NCBI RefSeq assembly: GCF_056746865.1
Contig: NZ_CM163382.1
DNA length: 64,000 bases
Reading direction: 5' to 3' (one strand)
Position 1 is the stretch's first letter. Every line of letters begins with the position of its first letter. A model generated the notes under the pieces. It made no database searches. It had not been told where the DNA came from and worked only from the letters and a program-made list of their open reading frames with translations. Below, in pieces: positions 21,899 through 27,368 of this stretch. The position numbers and the translations under genes are program-made.

Positions 21899-22036
21899 TT
21901 ATAGCACCACTTTGTTGCAGGACGCTCCCTCTTCATTACGTCCTGCACGTGGATACCCCAGCATCTCCATCAGCGGATCTTAGAATGTAATGGCGCGTGG
22001 CAGGTCGTTGGTTCCCAGCATAATGTAAGAAAACAT
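21899..22036 (-). pseudogene. VOC/glyoxalase-like gene remnant with premature TAA
   Basis: ATG (rc) at 22036 gives MFSYIMLGTNDLPRAITF then TAA (plus-strand TTA 21980-21982) where a Tyr codon is expected (..ITF-Y-DPLMEMLGYP..); the frame ends after about 26 more codons, far short of a VOC domain. Confidence 0.35.
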
Positions 22037-22073: not shown

Positions 22074-22334
22074 TCAGCTCAAATCACTCTCCGCTTTATG
22101 AGCCCAGGCTGGCATTGCCGTCAGATAACGTTTTGCACGCTTATGTGCTTCCTCCGGGCCGACTTTTTGCCAGGAATCAAGGAAGCTGGCTAAACCTGAT
22201 ACCGCTTCTTCCCAGGGTTTGAGATTGCCGTTGCTGTCGCTGCATTACGCACAATATTGATCACTGGCACTGTGTGCATCTGGTGCCGACATCGGCATTC
22301 CGCAAGCCTGACAGAACTGTTCATGTTGTGACAT
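22074..22334 (-). pseudogene. zinc-ribbon protein gene (yjhY-like) inactivated by an in-frame TAA
   Basis: ATG (rc) at 22334: MSQHEQFCQACGMPMSAPDAHSASDQYCA then TAA (plus-strand TTA 22245-22247), then CSDSNGNLKPWEE.. in the same frame to TGA at 22074; the stop sits where the second CxxC would read C-A-Y-C. Gene name is from memory only. Confidence 0.5.
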
Positions 22335-22460: not shown

Positions 22461-23207
22461 TTACCGGGCGATGAGTGCGAACACGCCCCAGCCAAAGCAT
22501 TCCCGCGCGTAGGTCACGTAGCGTTTCGGCGCGATGTTTAGTTCGGCCCTGACTTCGGCGGCGAAGTCATCGTCAGGATTCGCTTCCAGCCAGCGGCGCA
22601 TGGTCAGCCATTTTGCGGCTTCATACCGGTCCCAGCCTTCCTGGTCTGCCAGTACCATTTCCACCACGTCATAGCCGAGATCGTCGAACGCTCCGACAAG
22701 TCCTGGCAGCGTCAGGAAATCGCTTGTCGAGCTGACGCCGCAGGCCTGGGCTATTTCTTCTGTTGCTGGTAGCTGACGCCAGTAGGGTTCGCCGATAAGC
22801 ATGATCCCGCCCGGTTTCAGGCTTTGCGCTAGCAGCTCCTCCGCCCCGGCAAACCCACCGGCAATCCATGTCGCGCCGACGCAGGCCGCCACGTCACATT
22901 TTTCATTTGCGACGTAACCGGCCGCATCGTTATGAATAAAATGTACGCGTTCGCTGACGCCGAGTTCTTCCGCGCGACGCTTTGCCTGCGCGGTGAAGAG
23001 CGAACTCATGTCGATGCCAGTCCCCGTAATGCCATGATCCCTGGCCCAGGTGCAGAGCATCTCGCCCGAGCCGCTGCCGAGGTCAAGAATGCGGGTGCCC
23101 GGCTTCATGCGCAGCACGCGACCCAGCGTGGCGTACTTCTCTTCGGTGAACGGGTTATGGATGCGGTGTTCACTTTCGCTGATGGTAAAAATACGTGGGA
23201 TATCCAT
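22461..23207 (-). CDS. yjhP: class I SAM-dependent methyltransferase
   Basis: 248 aa; motif I RILDLGSGSGEM. Confidence 0.85.
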   Translation of the reverse strand: MDIPRIFTISESEHRIHNPFTEEKYATLGRVLRMKPGTRILDLGSGSGEMLCTWARDHGITGTGIDMSSLFTAQAKRRAEELGVSERVHFIHNDAAGYVANEKCDVAACVGATWIAGGFAGAEELLAQSLKPGGIMLIGEPYWRQLPATEEIAQACGVSSTSDFLTLPGLVGAFDDLGYDVVEMVLADQEGWDRYEAAKWLTMRRWLEANPDDDFAAEVRAELNIAPKRYVTYARECFGWGVFALIAR

Positions 23208-23262
23208 TATTTAATTCCTGTTATTGGGTTAAGCCTTAAAAAGGACACAACAAGATTGTTAT

Positions 23263-23808
23263 TCACGTCAGTGCTCCGGTTTCATCAGGGTCTGCGCACC
23301 GGATGTGGCCGGTCAGGGTCATGGGCTGAGCGGTGAGTGATTGCATCATCCAGCAGGCTTTGTGCTCCTCCGGGATGGGATAAGGTGCCGGATAGCCTTT
23401 GTCTCCGGCACAGGGTTCGAACCCATGTCGGGGGTAATAGGTGGCGTGGCCGAGAACAAAAACCGTCTGGCAGCCCATCAACCTCAGGTGCTCGATGCCA
23501 GTGCGTATCAACCGTCCTCCCACGCCCATCCCTTGGTATTCCGGTATGACCGCCAGGGGAGCGAGGATGTGCATCAACGGTGAATCCATTTCTCCTTTGA
23601 AGGTTGCCCGGGTAAATAAAATATGCCCGACGGCTTTGCCTTCATACCGGGCTAGCAGCGATAACGCGGGGCGCGCGCTTTCATCCTCAAGTAAAGAGGC
23701 CACTAAATCGGCTTCTTTGCTGAAGCCAAATGCGCGGGTTTCGACTTCCCGGATATCACTGGCATCACTTTTATCTGTGATATGAAAAGTGAAGTGGTGT
23801 ACTGTCAT
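23263..23808 (-). CDS. yjhQ: GNAT-family N-acetyltransferase (TopAI antitoxin YjhQ)
   Basis: 181 aa; GNAT fold; directly downstream of topAI on the same strand. Confidence 0.85.
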   Translation of the reverse strand: MTVHHFTFHITDKSDASDIREVETRAFGFSKEADLVASLLEDESARPALSLLARYEGKAVGHILFTRATFKGEMDSPLMHILAPLAVIPEYQGMGVGGRLIRTGIEHLRLMGCQTVFVLGHATYYPRHGFEPCAGDKGYPAPYPIPEEHKACWMMQSLTAQPMTLTGHIRCADPDETGALT

Positions 23809-23819
23809 AGAAACTCTCC

Positions 23820-24077
23820 TTAGCGATTATCGAGCTGAGCGCGAACTTTATTCAGCTCGGTGGTGTTGATTCGATAGGGCTGGCCATTGACGGACTTGAT
23901 AAGTTTTTTGGTTTTGAGTTTTTTGAAGACGGCGAGCGTGCAGTCGGTCAGCAACAGCCCTTCGCGGCTGTAGCATTCAACGGAAGTGACGCGGCCTGAA
24001 GAATCGCGGACGTGCGCAATACGTCTACCTTTAGCGAGAACGTGTAAGGTATGTTGTTCCTGACGGGATAAATTCAT
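23820..24077 (-). CDS. topAI: topoisomerase I inhibitor toxin TopAI (YjhX)
   Basis: 85 aa ([22 protein letters not shown]..); size and sequence as YjhX; upstream of yjhQ. Confidence 0.8.
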
Positions 24078-24453
24078 ACTGAAGAACCTATTTAATCATC
24101 ATGTGCAAAACGTGCAAACACACCGCGGTGTCCGCATTCGATTTCGGCGCATTGATAATCAGTCCGGCCTGAAAAGGTCGGGGAACTGATTATCGGATGA
24201 TTACATTCTCCAGCATCAAAGCCTCGGGTTGAGTTGAAAGGTATTTACGGAGCGAATATTAACACGTAGTTATAGGAGGGATATGTTTCAGTAGAAAAAG
24301 TGTGATGTACTTTGGAAATTGAATGCCAACCCATTTACTGGAAAAGGCAGATGACACTGACGAATGCATGTTGAAGTACGCCTGAAATGGCCTCATCGGC
24401 TTTTCCCTTCGGGAGATTATTCTCCTTTTGTTAAATCCAGAACATAAATATGC

Positions 24454-24699
24454 TCACCCATCTTCGATGCTTGAAAAATTGAAGCCAATCCTGATAAGTA
24501 ATTTTTTTGAAAGGGTATTTTCCGGATTCACACCGGCTTTGATGAGTGAAAAACCGTTCTCTTTTATTCAGTCAATCGTGGCGGTAATTGCTTCAATTGC
24601 ATATCCCTGGCGAGCATAAGCGGGACTGATGGTATAGCCGAGCCAAAACACATCGCATTGCTGACGTAAATAGATATCACCAATCAAAACCTGCGTCAT
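24454..24699 (-). pseudogene. GNAT acetyltransferase remnant, frameshifted
   Basis: Minus-strand reading gives MTQVLIGDIYLRQQCDVFWLGYTISPAYARQGYAIEAITATID-stop (24568-24699), and in another frame ..ENGFSLIKAGVNPENTLSKKLLIRIGFNFSSIEDG-stop (about 24454-24567), i.e. GNAT motif A and the C-terminal motif separated by a frameshift/stop. Confidence 0.45.
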
Positions 24700-24862
24700 T
24701 TGTTGACAATGGCCAATTGAATATCGCGAGCAAGTGTAAGAACTCCCAGCAAGACCCTGTAAATAATTCTGTGTAACTGCCCACGATTAAAGGTGGCCGC
24801 TCAGGCGGCCACCGTATTCGATAATAAATGGGTCTGGAAAAAGTGCAGCATCTGGCAGCGTA

Positions 24863-26055
24863 ATGCAGGTAGCCCAGTTCAACTCTCACTACCAGTATGA
24901 TCCCAAGTTCGAGCGCGGAATGTATCTGTATGAGCATCGTCGCTGTTTCAATAACATCATCGACTACTGTAACTCACTTTGCTATCACGGTAAGTTGCAG
25001 CCTAAAAGAGGGATGGAAAAAGGACGATTTTCCCCGCAATGGGATATTTACATATTGATGGTAGAGGCATGAAGCCAAATGGAGGGAGCCGTCATAACCC
25101 TCTTGAAGCTGAAACAATAGCAGCATGGCTGGTGGCACATAAGGATGATATAGAGCGCCATTACGGGGAACCACTGTACAAAGTTGTTGGTGTTGTGACG
25201 CCATTTTCGGCGCAGGTTAATGCTATCAAAATGTCATTGCGTAAGCTGGAAATTAATGGCAAAGACGAGCAGGGTTTACTGACAGTGGGGACTGTGCACT
25301 CCTTGCAGGGGGCGGAAAGGGCGATTGTTCTCTTTTCTCCTGTCTACTCAAAACATGAAGATGGCAGGTTTCTTGATAGCAACAGCACTATCCTCAATGT
25401 TGCTGTCTCACGCGCTAAAGATAGTTTTCTGGTATTTGGCGATATGGACCTTATCGAGATGCAGCCCGCATTTTCGCCGCGAGGGTTATTGGCAAAATAT
25501 CTCTTTTCTTCAGATAATAATGCGTTGCAATTTGAGTTTCAGAAACGACAGGATTTAATTTCCGCACATACACAAATTTCAACGCTGCATGGTGTGGAGC
25601 AGCATGATGAATTTTTGAACAAGACTCTTGCCGGAGCTCAAAAGAAAATAACGATTATTTCCCCTTGGTTATCCTGGCAAAAAGTGGAGCAAACGGGATT
25701 TCTGGCATCAATGGCTTTGGCCCGTTCCCGGGGCATTGATATTACCGTGGTGACGGATAAAAACTGCAATATAGCGCATGTCGATGATGATAAGCGTCAG
25801 GAGAAACAACATCTGCTGAATGATGCTGTTGAAAAGCTCAATAAGATGGGTATCGCTACGAAATTGGTTAATCGTGTTCACAGCAAAATTGTGATTGAGG
25901 ATGAAGAACTGCTGTGTGTCGGATCTTTTAACTGGTTCAGTGCTACACGGGAAGATAAGTATCAACGATACGATACGTCTTTGGTGTACCGTGGTGAAGG
26001 CGTAAAAAATGAAATAAAGGCAATATATGGTAGTCTGGATCAACGTCAGCTTTAA
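24863..26055 (+). pseudogene. yjhR: truncated superfamily-1 helicase / PLD-family nuclease gene (yjhR); a 338-aa ORF 25039..26055 remains
   Basis: ORF 25039-26055 carries helicase C-terminal motifs ([23 protein letters not shown]) and a C-terminal HKD motif ([19 protein letters not shown]); upstream 24863-25072 encodes more of the same protein in a different frame; no N-terminal ATPase domain is present. Confidence 0.7.

Positions 26056-26173: not shown

Positions 26174-27368
<1,195 letters not shown>

Follow-up and report, generated by a model that had tools for sequence, protein, structure and literature searches.

The toiL-topAI-yjhQ-yjhP operon of Escherichia coli: gene content, conservation, and how it may have been kept open among broken neighbours

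The DNA analysed here is a stretch of 64,000 nucleotides from contig NZ_CM163382.1 of NCBI RefSeq assembly GCF_056746865.1 (hereafter the window), and the subject of this report is a group of three genes at positions 22,461 to 24,077, topAI (also called yjhX), yjhQ and yjhP, for which toxin-antitoxin (TA) addiction had been proposed from the letters alone. The list of open reading frames (ORFs) in the window has these genes head to tail and co-directional on the minus strand, with spacers of 11 nt between topAI and yjhQ and 55 nt between yjhQ and yjhP; their coordinates, with those of the other features discussed below, are given in Table 1. The original prediction named the products as a TopAI-like toxin, a GNAT protein and an S-adenosylmethionine (SAM)-dependent methyltransferase, and these names are right. 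TopAI matches the Pfam family YjhX_toxin (PF09857) over residues 1-85 of 85 (2.5e-37) and NCBIfam PRK13687 (3.9e-44), YjhQ matches the Pfam GNAT domain (4.8e-12), and YjhP matches class I SAM methyltransferase domains of Pfam at values down to 5.8e-11. A region of 2.7 kb is 100% identical at the DNA level to E. coli K-12 MG1655, whose annotation names the genes topAI, yjhQ and yjhP. TopAI is identical to the K-12 protein WP_001054376.1 and YjhP to PDB 1NKV, a structural-genomics entry. Read from their sequences, YjhQ and YjhP both have intact catalytic motifs, among them the acetyl-CoA motif QGMGVG of YjhQ, and TopAI contains a lysine-rich segment. These genes belong to the toiL-topAI-yjhQ-yjhP operon of E. 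coli, which is known and already well characterised.

The AlphaFold model of TopAI is confident, with a predicted local distance difference test (pLDDT) score of 88. When compared with solved structures, the model gave no match at E <= 0.001, its top structural matches being weak and winged-helix-like (eS10, the MarR-type proteins ZitR and NadR, and PrfA, with TM-scores of about 0.45-0.5), and a TopAI sequence profile gave no match in the PDB. The YjhX family is small, comprising 201 clusters at 50% identity among 1.84 billion representatives. YjhQ resembles uncharacterised YhbS-like acetyltransferases (4ZBG, 4RS2). PADLOC returned no match for TopAI or YjhQ, for neither of which it has a model, and it matched YjhP to mad2 solely through the generic methyltransferase domain. 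A promoter and terminator scan yielded no signal above shuffled background and no terminator after yjhP.

Much of the biology of this operon has been published. Overproduced TopAI halts growth and kills, co-induced YjhQ rescues the cells in the same kind of overexpression experiment, tagged TopAI and YjhQ pull each other down, and TopAI inhibits DNA-bound topoisomerase I; the palindromes in the promoter are bound neither by YjhQ nor by the complex in electrophoretic mobility shift assays (Yamaguchi & Inouye 2015, PMC4666372). In MG1655, a single operon, with 171 nt of upstream region, comprises topAI, yjhQ and yjhP; a hairpin represses the translation of topAI, and because of this repression Rho terminates transcription between nt 10 and 42 of topAI (Baniulyte & Wade 2025, doi 10.1101/682021). 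The same study found that repression is lifted when ribosomes stall on the eight-codon upstream ORF (uORF) toiL, that at least five classes of ribosome-targeting antibiotics cause such stalling, at different codons, and that a deletion of topAI together with the first 74 bp of yjhQ could be built routinely. The single-gene yjhQ knockout of the Keio collection is viable and has been scored in a published screen of that collection, and the Keio yjhP knockout is viable and grows normally. When expressed, TopAI costs fitness, and it was spontaneously truncated in an evolution experiment. The co-transcription and the toxicity and neutralisation assays that the original prediction suggested are thus already in print, the former as topAI-yjhQP; it was also right in naming TopAI as an inhibitor of topoisomerase I and YjhQ as the reported antitoxin, which neutralises TopAI on co-overexpression, as well as in calling the role of YjhP unclear. 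With the operon, the toxicity, the neutralisation and the co-transcription all published, the finding as first written matters little.

The control region is recognisable in the window. The ATG of toiL lies 139 nt upstream of that of topAI, exactly at the published position. The RNA of positions 24235..24060 is predicted to fold so that toiL pairs with the Shine-Dalgarno sequence and start region of topAI (-57.8 kcal/mol; z = -3.8 against shuffles), and the consensus structure over the leaders of 30 loci retains the pairing between toiL and the ribosome-binding site. By both the predicted fold and this consensus, the leader has a short uORF that pairs with a downstream ribosome-binding site. 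One pair of the helix shows compensatory changes from AU to CG in 5 sequences of the 30-locus alignment; that there is only a single such pair is due to the strong conservation of the leader. A search of Rfam gave no family for it. We surveyed yjhX loci across species in the 80 best-scoring of 587 matches, almost all from Enterobacterales and with one genome per species; the scan was made from a 10-sequence alignment with EQR as its search pattern, which passes over the EQH variant of K-12 type and yields mainly Enterobacterales. Eighteen loci fell outside a strict toiL pattern, and alignment revealed variants in 16 of them; 78 of the 80 loci have toiL or a close variant upstream of yjhX, at a distance of 135-142 nt, the exceptions being L051, whose contig has no upstream sequence, and L080, from the non-enterobacterial Janthinobacterium. 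The variants among these loci are MLENVII, MLENVFIR, MLENVTIR, MLEIVTIR, MLENATI, MLEHVII and MLENVI.

The genes downstream of yjhX are far less constant. The first of them encodes a class I SAM methyltransferase in 55 of the 80 loci and a GNAT protein in 12 (eight complete YjhQ-like genes, three fragments and one distant relative), and in the remaining 13 nothing recognisable follows. The methyltransferases belong to three types, a YjhP-like one of 248 aa, a second of ~295 aa and a third of ~236 aa; in other species the gene that most often comes after yjhX is a YjhP-like methyltransferase, and 64/80 loci have one or more methyltransferase genes within 2.6 kb. YjhX itself is strongly conserved in Enterobacterales, at 78-95% identity to the query alignment. 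Outside this order, five of five alphaproteobacterial homologues, each from a long contig, lack a GNAT or methyltransferase gene that is co-directional with yjhX and directly downstream of it, one metagenomic homologue has yjhX followed by a GNAT gene, and the distant homologues P0129 and P0125 are on contigs too short to show neighbours. Since the partner after yjhX varies while toiL-yjhX is constant, the TopAI-YjhQ pair is not the conserved unit. Judged from gene order, that unit appears to be toiL-yjhX, with a methyltransferase and not a GNAT protein as its usual companion, a result that is modestly new. The methyltransferase as the usual partner makes YjhP the obvious next protein of interest, and the solitary alphaproteobacterial homologues call the label "YjhX family toxin" into question.

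Within E. coli, distribution was counted over 5426 complete genomes. A full-length module was found in 1650 of them, and two thirds lack it. Intact sgcX, which lies on the yjhP side, is found in 1648 genomes, and what remains of the dead yjhR gene, on the other side, in a total of 1729, of which 1570 have this remnant at full length. These near-equal counts indicate that the segment is inherited or absent as a block. The three proteins are all under long-term purifying selection: measured against two Citrobacter loci, the ratio of nonsynonymous to synonymous substitution rates (dN/dS) is 0.08-0.10 for topAI, 0.085-0.094 for yjhQ and 0.047 for yjhP. Between the K-12-type module and that of E. 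coli Nissle, dS is 0.05 in topAI and 0.07 in yjhQ, and reaches 0.40 (54.5 synonymous differences) in yjhP (window 22461-23207 against L004 8663-9409), with flanks that are 98-99.6% identical. It seems that the yjhP allele was exchanged by recombination with a divergent donor.

Our preferred reading, to which we assign a probability of about 0.78, is that the three genes are kept by purifying selection on a toiL-gated stress operon together with block inheritance, rather than by post-segregational killing, and that the stable unit is toiL-yjhX. The mechanism, as published, runs as follows. Transcription begins 171 nt upstream of topAI; ribosomes stalled on the eight codons of toiL, by tetracycline, macrolides, spectinomycin, retapamulin or ribosome defects, cause the hairpin to open and the whole operon to be expressed; TopAI then binds topoisomerase I on the DNA and blocks relaxation, and YjhQ binds TopAI and keeps its toxicity in check. 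To these steps we would add that the genes probably stay open through ordinary purifying selection on a conditionally expressed operon, that the whole segment from sgc to yjhR is passed on as one block, the scarred remnant of an island, and that the GNAT protein YjhQ is probably a lineage-restricted addition whose conserved C-terminus was lost here through a 2-bp deletion. Several points weigh against this reading. Purifying selection, which fits a conditionally used operon, is equally expected for an addiction module and by itself does not discriminate against it; the methyltransferase could be the neutralising partner where the GNAT protein is missing; the species survey covers the 80 best of 587 matches, mostly Enterobacterales; and since pairing was read from the neighbourhood of yjhX, a YjhQ-like gene elsewhere in a genome would go unseen.

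According to the addiction hypothesis, TopAI and YjhQ are a classical type II pair whose loss kills, and this protects the three genes from the fate of their neighbours. Overexpressed TopAI is indeed toxic and YjhQ is known to bind and neutralise it, the three reading frames have stayed open next to four to five broken genes, and complete loss of the module with the sgc flank kept looks rare (~15 of ~1665 genomes). However, the module is retained no more often than the dead yjhR remnant or intact sgcX, so that the addiction-type maintenance suggested by the original prediction is not borne out by the counts. The operon is also off unless ribosomes stall; as topAI is untranslated in unstressed cells, loss of the locus leaves a cell without any toxin. 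The viable Keio yjhQ knockout and the routinely built deletion of topAI with 74 bp of yjhQ point the same way, and so does the species survey, with its few GNAT partners, its 13 partnerless loci and its solitary alphaproteobacterial homologues. With a viable yjhQ knockout, silence in the absence of stress and retention no higher than that of dead neighbours, post-segregational killing at this locus is disfavoured, and we regard addiction as a very improbable account of why the module is intact.

The comparison with classical type II systems such as ccdAB, relBE and mazEF leads to a similar view. The likeness lies in the set of two genes, one product arresting growth and the other binding and neutralising it, as published for TopAI and YjhQ. 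Toxin-first gene order is also seen in higBA and mqsRA. In contrast to those systems, the "antitoxin" here is a 181-aa enzyme in which Pfam finds GNAT domains only and no DNA-binding domain; there is no autoregulation, the published mobility shift assays of YjhQ and of the complex on the promoter being negative, and control is exerted by a uORF, a hairpin and Rho instead of by antitoxin turnover. The knockout of the antitoxin is viable, and it is the toxin that is unusually conserved across Enterobacterales while its partner gene is not. Neither the conserved toxin-antitoxin pairing nor the DNA-binding, autoregulating antitoxin of a type II system is therefore found at this locus. GNAT proteins occur within TA pairs in TacT/TacA, AtaT/AtaR and KacT/KacA; in all of these the GNAT protein is the toxin, which acetylates aminoacyl-tRNA, and the antitoxin is a small DNA-binding protein. 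Compared by description, the roles in topAI-yjhQ are reversed, the GNAT protein being the reported antitoxin.

A closer look at yjhQ qualifies the claim that all three genes are intact. The ORFs are open and the spacers short, as had been said, but yjhQ carries a 2-bp deletion that frameshifts its last codons, though 94% of the protein is unaffected. Judged by the standard that the original prediction set for itself, yjhQ counts as frameshifted. In the protein alignment, YjhQ of the window and of K-12 ends in ...CADPDETGALT, versus ...CA(Q/R)ALMKPEHWRE in other orthologues; the ALMKPEHWRE ending, in a protein of 183 aa, is shared by E. coli Nissle, strain 746, Klebsiella, Hafnia and Citrobacter. 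With a 100-bp probe, the deletion allele was detected in 910 complete genomes, including BL21(DE3), and the allele with the two additional bases in 119 genomes of K-12-like background, to which ~626 B2-type genomes are to be added. Because of the two extra bases in the GC run, the NCBI annotation pipeline PGAP labels yjhQ as "frameshifted" in Nissle, ST131 and strain 746 (L004 9465-10012; L005; L006). A dead antitoxin beside a live toxin in B2 strains was considered and rejected, the orthologues of Klebsiella, Hafnia and Citrobacter making the 183-aa reading ancestral. From these alignments, the K-12-type yjhQ allele is the derived one, in which a 2-bp deletion has put another sequence in place of a C-terminus that is otherwise strongly conserved, and the pseudogene calls of PGAP on yjhQ are an artefact of taking K-12 as the reference. 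In other words, the textbook YjhQ of K-12 and BL21 is the frameshifted allele, and the ancestral one is flagged as broken by the pipeline. This derived allele and its mis-annotation are modestly new. The allele may be relevant to YjhQ's poor solubility and to the reading of the published neutralisation experiments, and an "antitoxin" that is itself frameshifted in this lineage is a further point against addiction.

Table 1. Features of the operon and its surroundings (positions in the window)
Feature	Position	Strand	Description
toiL leader ORF	24190..24216	-	MLENVIIR, then stop (ATGCTGGAGAATGTAATCATCCGATAA); position and sequence match Baniulyte & Wade
topAI leader	24078..24248	-	171 nt; toiL pairs with Shine-Dalgarno/start region in predicted fold
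topAI (yjhX)	24077..23820	-	85 aa, topoisomerase I inhibitor; ORF list, Pfam and NCBIfam
yjhQ	23808..23263	-	181-aa GNAT acetyltransferase, reported antitoxin; K-12-type allele with frameshifted C-terminal tail
yjhQ 2-bp deletion	23290..23300 (near 23298)	-	short GC run, GTGCGCGCAG to GTGCGCAG; DNA alignment of K-12 and Nissle
yjhP	23207..22461	-	248-aa class I SAM-dependent methyltransferase; ORF list and Pfam domains
yjhY zinc-ribbon pseudogene	22334..22074	-	single TAA at codon 30 (...QYCA(stop)CSD...); Pfam Zn_ribbon_2, 1.7e-10
VOC (glyoxalase/bleomycin-resistance fold) remnant	22036..21920	-	residues 1-39 of 130; tblastn with intact E. coli R2 protein
yjhZ RimL-like GNAT remnant (Acetyltransf_3)	24771..24420	-	lacks residues 1-41, frameshifted
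yjhR helicase pseudogene	24815..26055	+	N-terminus missing, frameshifted; PGAP
IS5	26174..27364		directly after yjhR; InsH ORF; gap in MG1655 alignment

The statement that pseudogenes lie on both sides is true of the immediate neighbours only. The genes yjhY, VOC, yjhZ and yjhR are broken, but an undamaged sgc operon of seven genes begins ~750 bp away from yjhP, and the MG1655 annotation also shows nanC and the fim genes, more distant and on the opposite side, as intact. Apart from its one nonsense codon, yjhY is intact, and an unbroken form of 86 aa is present in Nissle and strain 746. The VOC remnant, which PGAP annotates as a pseudogene, adjoins sgcX, and one deletion explains its truncation. 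The yjhZ remnant is 74% identical over residues 42-146 to the intact 158-aa protein of E. coli R2 (tblastn). Since the remnants of yjhZ and yjhR are divergent and abut at 24771-24815, one deletion explains both 5' truncations, and the same deletion probably removed both N-termini along with whatever lay between the two genes. A fragment of a restriction-endonuclease gene is also found beyond yjhR. B2 strains, in which the module has diverged by 4.3%, have the same VOC stump, the same truncations of yjhR and nanS, and the same fragment of the endonuclease gene. As most of the lesions in the flanks are common to these strains, they are old scars and not the ongoing erosion of DNA around a protected core, a further reason why addiction is not supported. 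The "decay" of the flanks is a handful of events, namely two junction deletions, one nonsense codon and an insertion sequence (IS).

That insertion sequence also tells the window apart from K-12. The two agree in the locus, the three proteins, the toiL start 139 nt upstream and the predicted occluding hairpin, and differ by the IS5 directly after yjhR; the window is not K-12 itself. The IS5 junction, absent from MG1655, is common to 84 complete E. coli genomes (FDAARGOS_497, ECONIH1 and MS6198 among them), so the window derives from a natural isolate whose module is identical to that of K-12. In K-12 this is presumably part of the region annotated as the phage-like element KpLE2. Fuller versions of the cassette are found in E. 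coli R2 and in Citrobacter amalonaticus (L038), with intact VOC and RimL-like GNAT genes upstream of yjhX and with yjhP, a zinc-ribbon gene and a VOC gene downstream; the slot of yjhQ holds a second methyltransferase gene in R2 and a fragmented yjhQ in L038.

So short a list of events raises the question of whether chance and time would suffice. A few deletions and insertions may simply have struck the flanks, the three genes being small targets, and the yjhQ deletion would then be the onset of decay of the module itself. The damage to the flanks can indeed be counted as about five events (the yjhZ-yjhR deletion, the VOC/sgcX deletion, the nonsense codon of yjhY, frameshifts and IS5), the 98-99.6% identity of the flanks between K-12 and B2 strains means that the segment is young or clonally inherited, and the 910 genomes with the deletion allele have a yjhQ without its invariant C-terminus. 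Yet interspecies dN/dS values of 0.05-0.10 reveal that all three proteins have long been under purifying selection, the 5' leader hardly varies between genera even though synonymous sites in the genes beside it are close to saturation, and YjhQ and YjhP have kept their catalytic motifs. On balance we consider chance alone distinctly improbable, if less so than addiction, and prefer selection on the toiL-gated operon together with block inheritance.

Another possibility is inducible detoxification or target modification, in which YjhQ and YjhP modify either the compound sensed by toiL or the ribosome, and TopAI serves as an accessory brake on growth. Antibiotic-sensing control by a uORF is otherwise typical of resistance genes, and Baniulyte & Wade speculate along the same lines (doi 10.1101/682021). 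The genes that follow yjhX always encode modifying enzymes, either a GNAT protein or a member of one of the three class I methyltransferase families, and the fuller cassettes are flanked by VOC genes, with their bleomycin/fosfomycin-resistance fold, and by RimL-like GNAT genes. Beyond its own family, the solved structures closest to YjhP are those of the natural-product methyltransferases MitM, MppJ, LahSB and TnmJ, but this similarity is weak (E ~1e-5 to 1e-7). No resistance phenotype is reported in the literature, and detoxification leaves unexplained why yjhX is invariant and why 13 loci hold yjhX alone. We therefore think it unlikely, though clearly less so than chance or addiction.

Among uORF attenuators of resistance genes (ermC, cat, vmlR, msrD and whiB7), the common feature is a drug-stalled uORF that remodels RNA hiding a ribosome-binding site. 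The toiL operon differs from these in that its downstream genes are not known resistance determinants and that the first gene to be regulated encodes a topoisomerase I inhibitor; according to the published work, the drugs to which toiL responds also span at least five classes, and ribosomes do not all stall at the same codon.

A tentative proposal, which we rate somewhat short of even odds, is that YjhX/TopAI acts as the effector of a conserved toiL-gated translation-stress switch and not as a selfish TA toxin. Its usual partner, the YjhP-like methyltransferase, may neutralise TopAI or act alongside it, and the antitoxin role of YjhQ would be a lineage-specific addition that has been studied only through the K-12/BL21 allele without the invariant C-terminus. 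The methyltransferase possibly modifies TopAI in the manner of a type VII antitoxin, or else modifies the small molecule that is sensed. For a type VII system, in which the antitoxin enzymatically modifies the toxin, the partners, all of them modifying enzymes, and the lysine-rich segment of TopAI provide only a lead.

The toiL peptide differs at positions 4-7 in some genera, namely Enterobacter, Trabulsiella, Phytobacter, Kosakonia and Serratia rubidaea (L019-L042 and L055; ~140 nt upstream of yjhX). In the majority of these loci, yjhX is accompanied by the 236-aa type of methyltransferase or stands without a partner. Since stalling is sequence-specific, the variants might respond to different drugs.

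A second yjhX locus of E. coli lies beside lsr in 125 genomes, 112 of which are without the K-12-type module. In E. coli MRSN346638 (L002 5727-6560) it has toiL at 139 nt, a methyltransferase gene truncated by IS21, and no GNAT gene. This locus was considered as proof that the toxin persists alone and was then downgraded, because its yjhX, with a GTG start and the change E7G at a residue that is almost never altered, may be undergoing decay too.

Two further observations come from other genomes. In Yersinia massiliensis, Salmonella diarizonae, Lelliottia, Enterobacter hormaechei and Klebsiella, the second type of methyltransferase and YjhP form one continuous frame of 543-562 aa (L039 5266-6906; L079 5263-6894; L058; L071; L040/L045/L050 5778-7466), for which a fusion and a YjhP start on a non-ATG codon are both possible explanations. 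Lastly, a contig of 3.2 kb from a metagenome-assembled genome (MAG) of Collinsella sp. (L007, JAIJJM010000365.1) contains toiL, a 95%-identical topAI and the start of yjhQ, and is most likely enterobacterial DNA that was mis-binned into an actinobacterial MAG.

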